From a virus: 64,000 nucleotides of DNA. Each line of letters opens with the position of its first letter. Positions within the stretch are counted from its first letter, which is position 1. Shown piece after piece: positions 1,200 to 46,216 of the stretch. Made by a program: the position numbers and the translations under genes. The stretch is taken from the IMG/VR virus record IMGVR_UViG_3300030044_000011, one strand, 5' to 3'. A model generated the notes under the pieces. It saw nothing but the letters and a program-made list of their open reading frames with translations, made no database searches and had not been told where the DNA came from.

Positions 1200-1706
1200 C
1201 TAAATTTTTTCGCCCTTAGCTTTCTCTTCTTCTGCTACTTCCTCATTATACTTCAAACGCTGGGCAAGTTCCTTATCCACCCACGCAATTTCCTGTGGAA
1301 ATTCTTTAAATTGTTTACGAGCCTCAGCGAGTGTCATCTTCCAAATCGGTTGAACCGTACCAACCCCACCGACATCCTTGTTCTTCCAAACCCACTGGCA
1401 GAAGGGGCTTTCTACCCAACAATGCCAATAGGTTCCTAAATCGTCACCCCAGTAGTCTTCCAACTTACAGGGCTCATCATCCGGTTCGTCTCCCCACTTG
1501 CGTTCCCAATTACAAATGAACTTGGGAAGCTTCACATGTGAGAGCCATTCGCATATGTGGGTGCAACAATCCCACGCAAAAAATTCAAGTGCAAGCCAGT
1601 ACCAAGCACACTCTTCCAAATGGATAGAGATTTCAGTGTCTTCGCCTGTGCCCCCGCCGAGCCAGAGACCTGACCAGCGACGTACTCTCCAGTTGAACAA
1701 CTTCAT
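1200..1706 (-). CDS. hypothetical Trp-rich protein
   Basis: 168-aa ORF, AAAGGA RBS. Confidence 0.7.
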   Translation of the reverse strand: MKLFNWRVRRWSGLWLGGGTGEDTEISIHLEECAWYWLALEFFAWDCCTHICEWLSHVKLPKFICNWERKWGDEPDDEPCKLEDYWGDDLGTYWHCWVESPFCQWVWKNKDVGGVGTVQPIWKMTLAEARKQFKEFPQEIAWVDKELAQRLKYNEEVAEEEKAKGEKI

Positions 1707-3434: not shown

Positions 3435-3522
3435 TGGTCGGGGTGAAGGGACTCGAACCCTCAGTGCGCTTAAGCTCCTGTTTCCAAAACAGGTCGGCTA
3501 CCATCTACCGATTTACACCCCG
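3435..3522 (-). tRNA. tRNA-Pro(TGG) with long variable arm
   Basis: CCTGT-TTTGGAA-ACAGG; 14-nt variable region; CCA. Confidence 0.85.
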
Positions 3523-3540
3523 ATCGATTTACACCCCGAT
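3509..3540. repeat. 16-bp tandem duplication CGATTTACACCCCGAT x2 at the tRNA 5' end
   Basis: Read directly from sequence. Confidence 0.9.
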
Positions 3541-3553
3541 ACGACAACATGAA

Positions 3554-3743
3554 CACCGGGGATGAGAAAGTGGAAATTAGGGAAGTTGGAAATCAACCCT
3601 TCATCACATCCCGGCGTGGCCGCACGGGATGCTGAGGTCTCTAGTGGACTTCAGTCCCGTGCAACATAGGGCACGGTCGAAACGAACGGGTTGGTCGTGT
3701 GAAACTCATATATACATAATACACAGAAAGTCGGTAAGTTCAA
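3554..3743 (-). promoter_or_regulatory. promoter and putative attenuator of the Pro/Met tRNA array
   Basis: TTGAAC-16-TATTAT; alternative pairings 1:2, 2:3, 3:4, 4:5. Confidence 0.65.
3641..3709 (-). CDS. leader peptide MSFTRPTRSFRPCPMLHGTEVH
   Basis: ATG 6 nt after the -10 box (leaderless); Pro codons CCA, CCG, CCT. Confidence 0.65.
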   Translation of the reverse strand: MSFTRPTRSFRPCPMLHGTEVH

Positions 3744-3845
3744 ACACTATTTTTGAATATTCTCTATTTTCTTTTTCCACAGGTCGGGAGTATACTCTGA
3801 ACAGCAGGGTCATACCGACCCTCTGGATACCCATGGGAGGATAGT

Positions 3846-8357: not shown

Positions 8358-8693
8358 TTAATACCCTAAATCCTCACCTCTCCAAGCATACAAATCATCA
8401 ATAGCCAACTCATCCAGTCGGCCTATATTCTTGGCTCCGAAGTTTGGGGTTTGGGCATGACAGTTGGGACACAGAAAACGGATGTTATCCGGTTCATTGT
8501 TCAGCCAGTCGCCATCAATGTGGTCGATTTGAAGAACAATCGGTCGGCCTATCCATTCAGGGTTTTTGTGTAAGGGACATCTAGGATCAGAGCACCGATA
8601 GGGGACACCTGATTCCAACATAGCCCGTCGCAAGCGAGTCACATGCTCTCGATGTTTCTTGCGATTCCTAACTAGAATCTGGCTCCAGTGCAT
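8358..8693 (-). CDS. HNH endonuclease
   Basis: LQIDHIDGDWLNNEPDNIRFLCPNCH. Confidence 0.9.
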   Translation of the reverse strand: MHWSQILVRNRKKHREHVTRLRRAMLESGVPYRCSDPRCPLHKNPEWIGRPIVLQIDHIDGDWLNNEPDNIRFLCPNCHAQTPNFGAKNIGRLDELAIDDLYAWRGEDLGY

Positions 8694-8705
8694 TCATTGT
8701 AATAC

Positions 8706-8793
8706 TGGTACCCGACCCCGGACTCGAACCGGGAACCGCATTTCGCTTCTCGGGAGTTTAAGCCCCGCGCCTTTGCCATTTGACCAGTCGGGC
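8706..8793 (-). tRNA. tRNA-Leu(TAA)
   Basis: CGGGG-CTTAAAC-TCCCG; long V arm; CCA. Confidence 0.92.
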
Positions 8794-8800
8794 ATAACTT

Positions 8801-8889
8801 TGGTCGGGAAGGTGGGACTTGAACCCACAACCGTTTCACACTTATCGAGTGTTTGAGACTCGCGCCTTTGCCAATTTGACCACATCCCG
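8801..8889 (-). tRNA. tRNA-Leu(CAA)
   Basis: CGAGT-CTCAAAC-ACTCG; long V arm; CCA. Confidence 0.88.
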
Positions 8890-9005
8890 ATTTGAAACTA
8901 TTGGAGACCAGTTACTCAATCGCCTTGGCGTGTATCTCGCCTACCACAGCTTTCGCCAGTCATACGGGGATCAGCGTACGTCCGTTTCACAGACTTATCC
9001 AAATT

Positions 9006-9092
9006 TGGTGCGCCCGAAGGGACTCGAACCCATACCCCCTTGCGGGGATTAGCACCTCAAGCTAACGCGGCTACCAATTACGCCACGGGCGC
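9006..9092 (-). tRNA. tRNA-Leu(GAG)
   Basis: TTAGC-TTGAGGT-GCTAA; CCA. Confidence 0.93.
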
Positions 9093-9153
9093 AAACTTCT
9101 ACTACAACAAAACTTGGTGCTTCACATTCTTACCACAAGTGCCTGTGCCAGAA

Positions 9154-9231
9154 TGGTAGCCGAGGTGGGATTCGAACCCACACTGTACGGATTTTGAGAC
9201 CGTTGCCTCCTGCCAGTTGCGCTACTCGGCC
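9154..9231 (-). tRNA. tRNA-Leu(CAA), short variable arm
   Basis: ACGGT-CTCAAAA-TCCGT; CCA. Confidence 0.9.
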
Positions 9232-9246
9232 ATTACATCAAAACTT

Positions 9247-9330
9247 TGGTAGCCCCACTCGGACTCGAACCGAGACGCCTTTCGACATTAGTTCCTAAGA
9301 CTAACGTGTCTGCCATTCCACCATGGGGCC
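9247..9330 (-). tRNA. tRNA-Leu(TAG)
   Basis: TTAGT-CTTAGGA-ACTAA; CCA. Confidence 0.93.
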
Positions 9331-9338
9331 GTTAAAAC

Positions 9339-9569
9339 CTATCGCTCCGTACGCTGCGTCTTCGGAAGGTCGAGACCCCAGCCACGCTGGATATTCTCGG
9401 AGTCCTGACGCATGTACACAGCCGCAACTTTCCATTCACCACTCTCGGGCTCATCCTTCAGGGTGATAACAGAGCCGCGCTTCACACCTCGGTTAGCGGG
9501 AACCCACGCCACCTTACAGTGAATACCGCGTTCTGACTCTTGCTGCAACATTGTTTGAACTAATTCCAT
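9339..9569 (-). CDS. hypothetical protein
   Basis: 76-aa ORF filling the gap between tRNAs. Confidence 0.6.
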   Translation of the reverse strand: MELVQTMLQQESERGIHCKVAWVPANRGVKRGSVITLKDEPESGEWKVAAVYMRQDSENIQRGWGLDLPKTQRTER

Positions 9570-9586
9570 TTCTTTCTCTTTCTTTA

Positions 9587-9674
9587 TGGTGCCCGGAGAG
9601 GGATTCGAACCCCCACGAGAATTAACCCACTGGCTTCTAAGACCAGCGCGTCTCGCCAATTTCGCCATCCGGGC
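9587..9674 (-). tRNA. tRNA-Leu(TAG)
   Basis: CTGGT-CTTAGAA-GCCAG; CCA. Confidence 0.93.
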
Positions 9675-9679
9675 ACATC

Positions 9680-10318
9680 TTAAATTCGACCCCTTCTCCA
9701 TCCAATCAAAACGTAAGAGGTCAAATCGTTTTGCTTAATCTTGATGGCTCTTTCACCGTCCGTTACCCAACGAGTACCGAACTGTGAATTCTTATCCCCC
9801 GCTCTATTCACCAATGCCATCTTTGCTTTGGTGTCCGCCCTGTGCTTCCGACCAGTCCAAGTGCGTTTACTCGCCGCTGAAATCTTAGCTGACACATCCG
9901 GTTCAACACCATGTTCCCTAATCTGGTTGGCCCGAGCCTCACTCATCATCTTGTAATGCTGTGGGTCTCGATGACTCTGAGAACTGTGTGACACTCTGGC
10001 GGCATTGGCGTAGTCGGCCAACCCTTCTCGATTGATATAGTCAAACCCACCAGAGCCCCCTTTTCTCAAATTCATACAGAGAGGGTTACCCCGCCAACAT
10101 TGAATCAACTCATCCTCTTTGCCAAATGCTGATTCAACATCGAGGTAGATGAACAGGACTTCCTTATGGAAGTTTTGTTCCCCATATTTTGCAACGGCTC
10201 GTTTGATGTATGTACCGGAACCGAGGTACGCATCATCAGGGTCTTTCGTTTTGTGAACCCCGAAGTAGAACTTGCCGTTGAGCAGGTTGACGGTTTTGTA
10301 AACCGTGTAGTATGTCAT
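9680..10318 (-). CDS. GIY-YIG (Seg-like) homing endonuclease
   Basis: VYKTVNLLNGKFYFGVH, YLGSG, NLRKGGSGG, NUMOD3-like tail. Confidence 0.85.
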   Translation of the reverse strand: MTYYTVYKTVNLLNGKFYFGVHKTKDPDDAYLGSGTYIKRAVAKYGEQNFHKEVLFIYLDVESAFGKEDELIQCWRGNPLCMNLRKGGSGGFDYINREGLADYANAARVSHSSQSHRDPQHYKMMSEARANQIREHGVEPDVSAKISAASKRTWTGRKHRADTKAKMALVNRAGDKNSQFGTRWVTDGERAIKIKQNDLTSYVLIGWRRGRI

Positions 10319-10363
10319 GAACCTATCAGTGCCCTCTACATAAGATACTGATAATCACGAATG

Positions 10364-10448
10364 TGCATGGAGTAGGATTTGAACCTACGTAGCCCCAAGG
10401 GGCGGGTGTTTTACAGACACCTAGTTTTAACCACTCACTCATCCATGC
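10364..10448 (-). tRNA. tRNA-Tyr(GTA), CCA not encoded
   Basis: GGTGT-CTGTAAA-ACACC; long V arm. Confidence 0.9.
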
Positions 10449-10455
10449 AAACTTT

Positions 10456-10548
10456 TGGTGCGTCCGACAGGATTTGAACCTGTTGTGTTTACCGCTTGGG
10501 TGCCGAGTTTACAGCCCGGTGCCACTCCCCCGTCGTGACCGCGAACGC
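10456..10548 (-). tRNA. tRNA-Tyr(GTA)
   Basis: CCGGG-CTGTAAA-CTCGG; long V arm; CCA. Confidence 0.88.
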
Positions 10549-10549
10549 A

Positions 10550-10711
10550 TTACTGCTTCGGAACATGTTGAAGATGAAGTGTACGCACAGCCTCAAGGTT
10601 ACGCTGTGCTGCTTCTCTCGTAGTTCCCGAGGTCACCAGACCCCAAGTTCTATCTTCAGCCACCCAACGCTTTGTTTCCGCGTCGAGCCAAAATTGTTCC
10701 GTTTCAAACAT
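10550..10711 (-). CDS. HicB-like antitoxin domain protein (53 aa)
   Basis: GGAG RBS; WVAEDRTWGLVTSGTTREAAQRNLEAV matches the HicB pattern. Confidence 0.6.
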   Translation of the reverse strand: MFETEQFWLDAETKRWVAEDRTWGLVTSGTTREAAQRNLEAVRTLHLQHVPKQ

Positions 10712-10719
10712 CTTTCTCC

Positions 10720-10750
10720 AAAAACAAAAGCCGCCCCAATCGGGCGGCTT
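10720..10750 (-). terminator. attenuator terminator upstream of the Leu/Tyr array
   Basis: AAGCCGCCC-GATT-GGGGCGGCTT-TTGTTTTT. Confidence 0.9.
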
Positions 10751-10774
10751 CGTGATTCATCTGAACTTTGGGGT

Positions 10775-10867
10775 TTAGATTGAGCCCCCTTCAGACGACA
10801 CGAAGCCGTTGCTAAGCAGGTAATACAAGCTTAGGCTAAGGTTCGAGTTGACTGATAAGCGGTTCAT
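10775..10867 (-). CDS. leader peptide MNRLSVNSNLSLSLYYLLSNGFVSSEGGSI
   Basis: GAGGAAG RBS; promoter TTGAAA-16-TATTAT at 10908-10935; overlaps antiterminator. Confidence 0.8.
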   Translation of the reverse strand: MNRLSVNSNLSLSLYYLLSNGFVSSEGGSI

Positions 10868-11006
10868 ATTCTTCCTCTCGGGCAGTGCCCGTTTCACATC
10901 TGTATACATAATACCGCGAAAGTTGAGGTTTTCAACACTGTTTTTGAATTTATTTTCATAGCTTATGGATTTTTCACTTTCCACCTCCTCTGTAGGAGGG
11001 TTTGAC

Positions 11007-11750
11007 ATGCCAAATCCAAATGTGAAACTCGGTCGCAAAGCCGTTAAGACCGACTCAAGAACTTTGAAGCTTTCCCCTTATATGAAGATGTTACCCCCGC
11101 CCCCGGCCTCTGTGGACTGGACGAAGGGGAACACCTCGTGGGGGATGATGCTGAATGACACCCTTGGTTGCTGCACCATTGCCGGAGCCGCGCACGCTAT
11201 TCAAGTGTGGAGCACTGAAACCGGCAGTGAAGTTACCGTACCTGATTCTACTGTACTTCAATATTATGAGCAGTGGGATGGGTATGTAAACGGCAACCCG
11301 TCAACCGACAACGGGGGTGTCGAACTCGATGTTCTCAATAAATGGAAGTCACAGGGGCTCCTCGGTCACAAGTTAGTGGCCTTTGCTGATCCACAGGTTC
11401 GCAACCACACAGAGATTATGCAAGCAATCAACCTCTTCGGTGGTGTTTACATCGGGATGCAAGTTCCCAACTACATCATCAACAACATCCCGGCTCTGTG
11501 GCAGATTGCGACCGCAGGACAGGACACTGGCATTGATGGTGGGCACTGTGTGTTTGTCTGTGGTTATGATGCAGTGGGGGTATCCTTCATCTCGTGGGGA
11601 CAGGTCTACAAGATGACATGGGCCTACTGGGATGTGTATGTGGATGAGGCACACGCCCTACTCTCGCAGGACTGGATAAACTCCAAGGGAGTTGATGTCC
11701 AAGGCTTCGACCTTGCACAACTGCAAACTGACTTATCTCAAATCAGCTAA
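11007..11750 (+). CDS. papain-like cysteine peptidase
   Basis: NDTLGCCTIAG, GGHCV, SWG; AGGAGG RBS. Confidence 0.75.
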   Translation: MPNPNVKLGRKAVKTDSRTLKLSPYMKMLPPPPASVDWTKGNTSWGMMLNDTLGCCTIAGAAHAIQVWSTETGSEVTVPDSTVLQYYEQWDGYVNGNPSTDNGGVELDVLNKWKSQGLLGHKLVAFADPQVRNHTEIMQAINLFGGVYIGMQVPNYIINNIPALWQIATAGQDTGIDGGHCVFVCGYDAVGVSFISWGQVYKMTWAYWDVYVDEAHALLSQDWINSKGVDVQGFDLAQLQTDLSQIS

Positions 11751-43655: not shown

Positions 43656-43881
43656 TTTGAATCAGAGATATTTTCGTACCTCCAGTGGTCCGAATCGGTA
43701 GCTCTCATATGAGCTACATCCCCACATAAGAGAACTGTTCAATCGGAAGGTCTTTCCAAAAGACCAACTCCGCCACCAGAAATAGTACCTCCACATATCT
43801 CCTCAATTTCTCGACGCCTCTCCGCCGTGCCACACCACTTTAGTCCGCAGGACTCGGTAGGTGTCACCCCGCTTAAAACTC

Positions 43882-44277
43882 TGCACTAGACTTATAGCCG
43901 GAGTTCTGTCCAGAGGGTTACCCCTCCTGTACAATCATTCGTCTCGGCCAGCCGTTACCGTCTGGCTCTAGCCCCCAACCCGCCGATTCATAACGGTACG
44001 AGCAGTACCTGTCGGCCTATTTGAGGTTGCACCGCGTAGAGATTGCCCGTTTCACCCGAATTTAATCGGCTCGTCTCTGTTGCTCTAATCGTCACACTCA
44101 ACATCGGACGGGTTGTTCCCATAGGGTTGGTGGAAATCAACCAGACGTATAGCTGCGTCCCCTTACGCTACGTCCCCGAACAAGTGTGCTAGGGTGTTAC
44201 CCTATACGCTGCTCTGTGGTGCTCCGAACTTCCTCGAAGTGGTATTGCGCCACGTCGCGATTGTCCAGTCTAGTGCA
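43882..44277 (-). ncRNA. rnpB: RNase P RNA
   Basis: P1 TGCACTAGACT/AGTCTAGTGCA; GAGGAAGTTCGGAGC and ACAGAACTCCGGCTAT (P4); GCAACAGAGA, GGGTGAAACGG. Confidence 0.92.
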
Positions 44278-45127: not shown

Positions 45128-45159
45128 AAAAACGAAAGGCCAGCCTTTTCGGCTGGCCT
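45128..45159 (-). terminator. attenuator terminator upstream of the GNN/Cys array
   Basis: AGGCCAGCC-GAAAA-GGCTGGCCT-TTCGTTTTT. Confidence 0.9.
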
Positions 45160-45179
45160 CGGTTTCGATTTCAGACTGG

Positions 45180-45323
45180 TTAGTTAGTCTTAATCTCTCC
45201 CGAGGCCATGGTATCCTCTCCCGCGCAACCGGCTTCAGCGGCTGCGACAGCTACGACTACGCCCACGACGCCAGTGTTCGGTGCGTCCATGGTGTTAATC
45301 GAAATGTTGGTACGGATAGTCAT
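45180..45323 (-). CDS. leader peptide MTIRTNISINTMDAPNTGVVGVVVAVAAAEAGCAGEDTMASGEIKTN
   Basis: AAGGA RBS; promoter TTGCAC-18-TATTAT at 45344-45373; overlaps antiterminator. Confidence 0.85.
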   Translation of the reverse strand: MTIRTNISINTMDAPNTGVVGVVVAVAAAEAGCAGEDTMASGEIKTN

Positions 45324-45402
45324 GGTGTTTGTCCTTCTGTTACATAATACGCAGAAAGTTGAAATTTGTGCAAGCTGTTTTTCATTTATTTTCACAGCTT
45401 AT

Positions 45403-45434: not shown

Positions 45435-46216
45435 TCCTCGGTGTGCTGCCTGTGTTGCACCACCCAAACTCGGCTTGACGTTAGTCTGGAACCGGACCAT
45501 CGAACCCGGTATCTCCGAGGAACCCATAAACTGAGAGTACCACCACCCCGTTGTGGAAATCAACCCCCATGTGCCTTACGATAACCATCGGCTATCGAAT
45601 TCAACAATGAAATGGATTGGCCTTTTGTCTCCACTTTCACTTTCCGGGTTCGAGGTTCCCGCCTGCAAACGATACTTCACCCTCGAATACCCCGCCAGTT
45701 GCTTCCCAAGAAGTATCACCTCATTCATAATACACAATTCAGAGGTGCTAACACAACCAAATTTGAAAACTCCCGAGGGAGGGACGGTTCAGTCAGGTTT
45801 ATCTGTGCCGTCCAATCCTTCCCGAAACCCTTGCGGGTTTGCGTACCTGACGAATTAAATCCATAGTACACCAACGAGGAAGAAACCGCAACTACCTGCC
45901 ATTTTTGATGACGTTTATCCATCCCTGTGTTTGCTCACTTACAGTAGGTGTGGGTTTTACCGTCTTGCGGGTTCGAGGCTTGGAAGTCTCGAACCGCTCG
46001 GTCTCCGCAGCGTACCGCACTAGAGCTTGCCGCAGATTCATAGCAGCCTCGTAACCCTCCAGTGCAGACTCACAGCCTTGGCACCGCCCTATAATGGCAC
46101 CACGGCCATGTGCAGGGTTGTAGCGTGGGTGCTTGGGACACCGCAGTGTCAGTTTGCTCTTGGATACAGTCTTCAGCCGCAGCTTGGTGGCGTCGTCAAA
46201 GCAGAACTTCAACATG

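Follow-up and report, generated by a model that had tools for sequence, protein, structure and literature searches.

The window analyzed here is a stretch of 64,000 nucleotides of viral DNA (IMG/VR record IMGVR_UViG_3300030044_000011). This is DNA of a phage, with genes for a ribonucleotide reductase, helicases, a UvsX-like recombinase, and a lytic tail protein. It also carries 31 tRNA genes, grouped in blocks by amino acid, and a bacterial-type RNase P RNA. One stretch of these genes, on the minus strand, combines Tyr and Leu tRNAs downstream of a compact arrangement of promoter, short leader ORF, and hairpins, hereafter the cassette (Table 1). The original prediction for this locus had counted six tRNA-Leu and two tRNA-Tyr genes in the array. 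The six tRNA-Leu genes and one tRNA-Tyr gene are called by both ARAGORN and Rfam, whereas the second Tyr-type gene is atypical and was missed in the window by ARAGORN and, at threshold, by Rfam; its homologue in the related viral contig L001 is recognized as a tRNA-Tyr by ARAGORN. The 53-codon ORF that separates the cassette from the first tRNA in the window has a weak, sub-threshold match to DUF7387 and no relatives in viral contigs.

Table 1. Features of the Tyr/Leu locus and of the second, related cassette (window coordinates)
Feature	Position	Strand	Description
Divergent gene	11007–11750	opposite strand	PHROG without known function; shares the intergenic region
Promoter	10905–10935	minus	Sigma-70-like; −35 box at 10930–10935, 16-nt spacer, −10 box at 10908–10913; 10/12 consensus matches
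5′ untranslated leader	10868–10900	minus	Small hairpin at 10880–10890; Shine-Dalgarno site at 10871–10879
Leader ORF	10775–10867	minus	ATG at 10867; 30 codons plus UAA
Segment 1	10838–10862	minus	5′ half of leader ORF; predicted to pair with segment 2 (protector helix, 1:2)
Putative effective stall zone	10820–10840	minus	Codons 10–16: three Leu, two Ser, two Tyr; from geometry
Apical 6-bp hairpin of 1:2	10812–10834	minus	Both Tyr codons in the loop
Segment 2	10786–10808	minus	Antiterminator 5′ arm; doubles as codons 20–28
Leader stop codon (UAA)	10775–10777	minus	Inside the antiterminator apical loop
Segment 3	10742–10773	minus	Antiterminator 3′ arm; final 7 nt (10745–10751) are the start of the terminator 5′ arm
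Intrinsic terminator (3:4)	10720–10751	minus	10-bp G+C-rich stem at 10727–10751, 5-nt loop, U tract to 10720; −19.6 kcal/mol
53-codon ORF	10550–10711	minus	Own ribosome-binding site; first gene past the terminator; in the window and the near-identical L049 only
Atypical tRNA-Tyr-like gene	10456–10548	minus	GTA anticodon, intact acceptor stem, CCA end; aligned with L001 homologue
tRNA-Tyr (GTA)	10363–10448	minus	ARAGORN and Rfam
ORF	9680–10318		Between tRNA-Tyr and the tRNA-Leu block
Six tRNA-Leu genes	8706–9674	minus	Anticodons TAG, TAG, CAA, GAG, CAA, TAA; ARAGORN and Rfam
HNH-like ORF	8358–8693		After the tRNA-Leu block; weak HNH match
Sister cassette	45128–45358	minus	Promoter motif 45341–45358, ATG 45323, terminator stem 45136–45160, U tract to 45128

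Every cassette element quoted in the original prediction—the leader codons, the ATG at 10867, the long hairpin, and the terminator with its U tract—is present, and all are read on the minus strand. Transcription would start near position 10900 of that strand, just past the sigma-70-like promoter. An 18-nt extended motif that includes the −10 box (10905–10922) has three copies in the 64-kb window, where 0.1 would be expected; the other two are at 3713–3730 and 45341–45358, all three lie on the minus strand, and each precedes a tRNA array. The same motif was found in all relatives.

The comparisons below draw on four distinct variants of the cassette: the window itself, the viral contig L001, and two metagenome lineages (L048/L050 and L051). 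L001 was reached without bias, through a neighboring protein gene at 82% identity, and its cassette precedes two tRNA-Tyr and four tRNA-Leu genes. The remaining sequences came from a peptide-level pattern scan of metagenome contigs, which returned L049 (near-identical to the window), L047 (the same as L001), L048/L050, and L051; because the pattern required the core peptide, conservation of that core in L048 and L051 is partly a matter of construction. All four variants possess the promoter motif, a ribosome-binding site, the ATG, the long hairpin, and the terminator. The ribosome-binding site is purine-rich in three of the four and is represented in L051 by a weaker purine-rich stretch, and the 5′ untranslated leader as a whole varies among the four in both length and sequence.

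The leader ORF encodes Leu-Ser-Leu-Ser-Leu-Tyr-Tyr-Leu-Leu at codons 10–18, that is, five Leu and two Tyr. Its Leu codons are TTA, CTT (twice), CTA, TTG, and CTG, and its Tyr codons, TAT TAC at 10820–10825, are unchanged in all four variants. The frame set by the leader ATG is the only one open in all four; the first 19 residues of the peptide are near-constant among them, and its tail is not conserved. Between the window and L001, the unbiased pair, codons 1–23 show six synonymous and three nonsynonymous differences, the synonymous ones including switches between the CTN and TTR families of Leu codons and a three-base switch from AGC to TCC for Ser. The comparison shows signs of amino-acid-level selection on the start of the leader ORF, the signature of a translated frame.

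The ORF ends inside a long imperfect hairpin with two small bulges, in which segment 2 pairs with segment 3 (2:3). In the window, this hairpin has a predicted energy of −35.7 kcal/mol (z −6.5), matched by none of 200 shuffles. Every variant forms it while the 3′ arm of the terminator is still to be transcribed, at energies from −30 to −36 kcal/mol and z-scores from −3.2 to −6.5, with 0/200 shuffles as good in each variant. The interior and apical sequences cannot be aligned among the variants and yet they fold, which indicates that structure has been kept and sequence has not. Every variant has the leader stop codon in the apical loop, to within 1 nt. At the base of the hairpin, a 10-bp helix is nearly invariant and shows no significant covariation among the four variants.

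The original prediction had also proposed that the antiterminator captures the 5′ arm of the terminator, and the overlap is borne out: the seven bases at 10745–10751 belong to both helices and make 2:3 and 3:4 mutually exclusive, and both helices are found in all four variants. The terminator carries compensatory changes at 4 of its 11 pairs, a degree of covariation reached by only 3 of 500 shuffles. In L048, one shared position of segment 3 changes together with its partners in segments 2 and 4; this three-way change indicates that both of the alternative helices have been kept.

A further pairing, between segments 1 and 2, is predicted for the nascent RNA. In each of the four variants, the stretch from the ATG to about nucleotide 84 folds as a single extended hairpin (−20 to −30 kcal/mol). 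This protector pairing is significant in L001 (z −5.5) and L051 (z −4.9) and weak in the window (z −1.8) and L048 (z −1.5). The small hairpin at its apex keeps six of six pairs in the four variants, one of them through a change that involves a G-U pair. Its stem is built from Leu and Ser codons that are invariant, and adjacent Leu and Ser codons vary; the 6-bp apical hairpin forces part of the Leu-Ser pattern of the peptide, and two Ser codons are fixed by it. The 1:2 pairing and the placement of the stop codon in the antiterminator loop are additions to the original prediction.

Equilibrium folding without a ribosome favors the antiterminator in the window variant and the terminator in the relatives, so the default state of the RNA is uncertain. 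Equilibrium folding with a masked ribosome footprint was dropped as a line of support: only ribosome positions from codon 17 onward consistently favor the terminator, and the outcome is ambiguous for earlier positions because the decision is kinetic.

The arrangement is likely, judging from sequence comparison and predicted folds, to be a ribosome-mediated (leader-peptide) transcription attenuator of the four-segment type that controls the Tyr/Leu tRNA operon of the phage. The phage would then probably make these tRNAs only when Leu or Tyr codons are being read slowly. This is the reading that the original prediction had offered, and computation supports it through the four variants, the selection on the ORF, the structures, the lack of an additional promoter, and the sister cassette discussed below. 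As far as sequence can establish them, the parts and their order, their conservation, the exclusivity of 2:3 and 3:4, the want of room for another promoter, and the compositional match between leader and cargo are all in place. We infer the stalling itself, the direction of its effect, its amino-acid specificity, and the induction of the operon by Leu or Tyr limitation.

In the proposed mechanism, transcription would proceed from about 10900, a ribosome would load on the 30-codon leader ORF, and the outcome would be set by the speed of that ribosome. When decoding is fast, the ribosome would unwind segment 2 and reach the stop codon in the 2:3 apical loop, leaving segment 3 unpaired; the free segment 3 would then form the 3:4 terminator, and the transcript would end at about 10720. 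A leader that is not translated at all would be expected to terminate too, the 1:2 protector forming first. When charged tRNA-Leu or tRNA-Tyr is short, the ribosome would stall at codons 10–16, covering segment 1 and the apex and leaving segment 2 free; the 2:3 helix would then sequester seven bases of the 5′ arm of the terminator. RNA polymerase would continue past the terminator and transcribe the 53-codon ORF along with both Tyr-type tRNAs and all six Leu tRNAs. Geometry suggests the limits of this stall zone, as segment 2 would stay free so long as the A site of the ribosome is at codon 16 or before, and a ribosome at codon 17 or later would cover the base of the antiterminator. The net effect would be a demand-driven supply of tRNA.

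The specificity of such a sensor must be sought in the composition of the leader, which we compared with the codon usage of 22 long ORFs of the window. Leu and Tyr together account for 8 of 29 leader codons, a modest excess (P = 0.017), and Leu, Tyr, and Ser together for 16 of 29 (P = 1e-5). In bacteria, these are the three amino acids whose tRNAs have a long variable arm. The leader is depleted in codons for Val, Gly, Ala, Glu, Cys, and Asp. The original prediction had laid weight on the sampling of five different Leu codons; five distinct codons among six are within chance given the codon usage of the phage (P = 0.18), and we have rejected this diversity as evidence. It had also remarked on the lack of a Ser tRNA in the array, and this is upheld: ARAGORN and Rfam find no cognate tRNA in the operon for the seven Ser and four Asn codons of the leader. 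As to its suggestion that related phages might retain a tRNA-Ser, L050 does have Ser-like genes with long variable arms, but these are called by ARAGORN only and fall below the Rfam threshold.

A second cassette with the same promoter motif, the sister cassette, bears on the same question. Its leader has 47 codons, of which 20 consecutive ones specify Gly, Val, Ala, Glu, Cys, or Asp; it has no Leu and no Tyr. Downstream lie tRNAs for exactly those six amino acids. In the relative L044/G002, the homologous sister leader precedes 16 tRNAs, again for these six amino acids. The stop codon of both sister variants sits at the apex of the antiterminator, whose 3′ arm overlaps the terminator. The sister cassette is the strongest support for a match between leader peptide and cargo.

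It is unlikely, in our estimation, that the cassette instead attenuates in response to translation status at large, reporting any slowing or lack of ribosomes (as under global translational stress or ribosome shortage) and not the decoding of Leu and Tyr, with a composition that is mostly a by-product of RNA structure. The Ser and Asn codons, as prominent in the leader as those for Leu and Tyr and yet without a cognate tRNA in the operon, would fit such a role, as would the use of invariant Leu and Ser codons to build the apical hairpin and the chance-level diversity of Leu codons; general translational stress is known to induce one bacterial tRNA array (PMC8421152). Structural constraint alone, however, does not predict the reciprocal matching of leaders to arrays between the sister and Leu/Tyr cassettes, and the Tyr-Tyr pair is invariant in an unpaired loop, where it is free of such constraint.

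A different kind of explanation would detach the cassette from the tRNAs altogether. An independent micro-gene or small RNA could yield a transcript of about 180 nt that ends at 10720, with hairpins serving stability or processing, and the tRNAs could be expressed through constitutive leakage of the terminator or from an unrecognized phage-type promoter. The strength of the terminator (−19.6 kcal/mol, with a good U tract) and the conservation of the N-terminal part of the peptide are compatible with this. On the minus strand between 10935 and the array, a sigma-70 scan, to which phage-specific promoters are invisible, found no other promoter-like site. Escape from that scan would leave a promoter of the phage's own type conceivable, but in three variants (L001, L048, and L051) tRNA-Tyr begins only about 10 nt past the U tract; given this spacing and the lack of a further promoter-like site, any expression of the tRNAs must pass the terminator. 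Nor does a simple micro-gene account for the fate of the 3′ half of the leader, where the peptide tail is unconserved but the overlap of hairpin base and terminator arm is kept with the three-way compensatory change described above, or for a stop codon held in the apical loop in all variants, which would have no role there. We regard an origin of this kind as quite improbable.

Least probable, and very improbable in absolute terms, is an RNA-only switch, such as a T-box-like tRNA sensor or a protein-binding leader. The loop with the Tyr codons would then bind a factor or the anticodon of a tRNA, and the ORF would be incidental. The display of the Tyr codons in a hairpin loop that is conserved would suit such a switch, as would the nature of the regulated genes, which are tRNAs. 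Against it, neither the T-box covariance model (searched over 10300–11200) nor any other riboswitch family gave a match at E up to 10, the Shine-Dalgarno site (weak in L051) and ATG are conserved before a single open frame, and the mostly synonymous substitutions point to selection on the peptide reading frame.

Within the attenuator reading, a more specific function is possible, and we offer it tentatively. Each codon of the stall zone may test for a single tRNA species among those for which the array holds a replacement, so that the cassette would act as a sensor of individual isoacceptors. The phage could then notice when particular host tRNAs are depleted or cleaved in the course of infection, as retron effectors that degrade tRNA-Tyr or anticodon nucleases might do, and switch on exactly the replacement set, block by block, across its arrays. 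The cassettes would in that case form a sensing layer for counter-defense and would not be a form of nutritional control. A phage tRNA-Tyr has been found to evade a retron defense (PMC11555353). The leader of L051 has five different Leu codons, and they match the five Leu anticodons of its array one to one, which also counts in favor of the attenuator reading as a whole; the correspondence applies to L051, the other arrays being cut by contig ends or lacking one anticodon.

Several searches addressed the wider distribution of these cassettes. A scan of viral contigs with the promoter motif gave mostly chance matches; those that are related are L024 (on the same contig as L001), L044, and perhaps L042. 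Searches with the gene beside the promoter of the Pro array and with a 50-residue query from the sister leader gave no confirmed relatives. A homologue derived from a host was considered among bacterial species representatives and rejected, as the peptide-pattern scan gave a single chance match, located out of frame in a membrane-protein gene with no tRNA nearby. Among cultured jumbo phages, those whose tRNA-Tyr is similar (Erwinia phage Kaldavass) lack such cassettes, and their tRNAs are scattered.

The likeness to classical attenuators is one of logic and layout. The leader of the leu operon (leuL), like trpL, hisL, pheL, and thrL, is a promoter-proximal short ORF with clustered regulatory codons; leaders of this type likewise form mutually exclusive 1:2/2:3/3:4 helices, with 3:4 an intrinsic terminator and a stalled ribosome favoring 2:3. 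Their cargo consists of biosynthetic enzymes, whereas here it would be phage tRNA genes. They rely on a run of one codon, whereas the regulatory codons here are mixed and diverse in their synonyms. A further difference from leuL-type leaders is the position of the stop codon, which in the phage cassette falls within the 2:3 apical loop. None of the Rfam leader families for Leu, His, Thr, Trp, and Phe reached its gathering threshold: the best was Phe_leader at 23.6 bits against a threshold of 55, through the terminator only, and leader families other than Phe_leader gave no match at E up to 10. The pheL leader has itself been surveyed (PMC3082878).

Leaders that respond to more than one amino acid offer a parallel for the mixture of codons, as they too combine codons for several amino acids in one leader peptide. 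The ilvGMEDA leader senses Ile, Leu, and Val, and the thr leader senses Thr and Ile; shortage of any one of these relieves termination. The amino acids sensed there share a biosynthetic pathway, whereas the set encoded here mirrors the downstream tRNAs. For attenuation of a gene of the translation apparatus, a precedent is pheM-pheST, in which a leader peptide controls the phenylalanyl-tRNA synthetase genes in response to the level of charged tRNA. In that system, it is a bacterial synthetase that is regulated, whereas the phage cassette would regulate the tRNA genes themselves; as the tRNA genes are what is regulated, their product would directly relieve the stall, a direct feedback on tRNA supply. 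T-box riboswitches also choose between a terminator and an antiterminator according to the state of a specific tRNA. They bind uncharged tRNA directly and do not need translation, whereas the phage cassette is without a T-box signature and has an ORF with coding-type conservation.

Among tRNA arrays, the trn operon of Anabaena PCC 7120 is a long supernumerary array that stays silent unless impaired translation induces it (PMC8421152). That array is bacterial and is not sorted by amino acid behind matched leaders, and the text describing it makes no mention of an attenuator, leader, or terminator (PMC8421152). Our literature search found no description of such control for tRNA genes, a negative search not being proof of absence. 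What is new lies in the cargo, which consists of tRNA genes, in the giant phage that owns the cassette, and in the way leader and array mirror each other; the logic itself is that of known attenuators.

The purpose and timing of phage tRNA genes are debated, with compensation for codon usage, decay of host tRNAs, and evasion of tRNA-targeting defenses all under discussion. If the attenuator reading is true, the phage would measure decoding speed at defined codons and feed the result back on its own supply of tRNA, and the regulated product would directly cure the signal that induced it. A textbook mechanism of amino-acid and synthetase genes would thereby be extended to tRNA genes and to viruses. 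The same reading would explain the sorting of the arrays by amino acid. The cassettes are also compact and portable parts, of about 180 nt, and may be candidate sensors for the availability of specific tRNAs. For the phages that carry them, the CheckV-based completeness of related contigs implies genomes of about 300 kb.

The sister cassette, which precedes the Val/Gly/Ala/Cys/Asp/Glu tRNA array, has a leader of 47 codons beginning with an ATG at 45323, in which 20 consecutive codons specify Gly, Val, Ala, Glu, Cys or Asp. The stop codon of this leader sits at the apex of the antiterminator, which in turn overlaps the terminator (stem 45136-45160), and the cassette is followed by tRNAs for exactly the six amino acids of its leader. 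A homologue of the cassette was found in a relative (L044/G002). The phage tRNA array itself also contains a class A bacterial RNase P RNA, matched with 162.5 bits and an E value of 1.5e-50.

Features of the window beyond the predicted Leu/Tyr attenuator
Feature	Window position	Strand	Remark
Sister cassette	45128-45358	minus	promoter motif in common with the Leu/Tyr attenuator
RNase P RNA, class A bacterial	43879-44276	minus	within the Val/Gly/Ala/Cys/Asp/Glu tRNA array
Region with third promoter-motif copy	3515-3745	minus	motif precedes the Pro tRNA array
tRNA with eight-base anticodon loop	3156-3231	minus	among the Pro tRNAs
Atypical tRNA-Tyr-like gene	10456-10548	minus	GTA anticodon
53-codon ORF	10550-10711	minus	own ribosome-binding site; between the terminator and the tRNAs
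Two ORFs	8358-8693; 9680-10318	minus	among or adjoining tRNA genes
13-nt motif, two copies	3587-3599; 45554-45566	minus	identical, by eye

Upstream of the Pro tRNA array, an ATG lies 6 nt past the -10 box of the promoter and opens a leaderless ORF of 22 codons that includes CCA, CCG and CCT. Folding of this upstream region is weakly above chance (z -1.8), and no clear intrinsic terminator was found within it; a search through the neighbouring gene recovered no relatives. Among the Pro tRNAs themselves, the one with an eight-base anticodon loop is assigned a four-base anticodon by ARAGORN and scores 49.9 bits as a tRNA in Rfam.

Downstream of the Leu/Tyr terminator, the 53-codon ORF occurs only in the window and in its near-identical copy L049, and is missing from the three other variants of the cassette; for this reason it is probably a recent insertion under the control of the predicted attenuator. 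Its match to DUF7387 is weak and sub-threshold. In the neighbouring tRNA-Tyr-like gene the acceptor stem is intact and the CCA end is encoded, but the D region is enlarged; the gene was not called by ARAGORN or Rfam in the window, and its homologue in the viral contig L001 is called as a tRNA-Tyr of 94 nt. As for the two ORFs associated with the tRNA genes, one gives weak matches to HNH endonucleases; the other resembles a GIY-YIG homing endonuclease by eye and has no Pfam match.

Further observations concern the surroundings of these cassettes and their relatives. The divergent neighbour gene, a PHROG of unknown function, is present as a tandem duplicate in L001 (2967-3749 and 3767-4504) and as a single copy in the window. 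In L042, a viral contig of 463 kb, the promoter motif is matched at locus 1227-1245 (minus strand), before a tRNA-like sequence; an apparent tmRNA with an alanine-rich tag, judged by eye, follows the same motif. Both 13-nt copies lie in transcribed regions, one 5' of the Pro array and the other 5' of the Val/Gly/Ala cassette, where it falls within a non-coding stretch of about 350 nt that follows a further promoter-like -10 box near 45725, also identified by eye.
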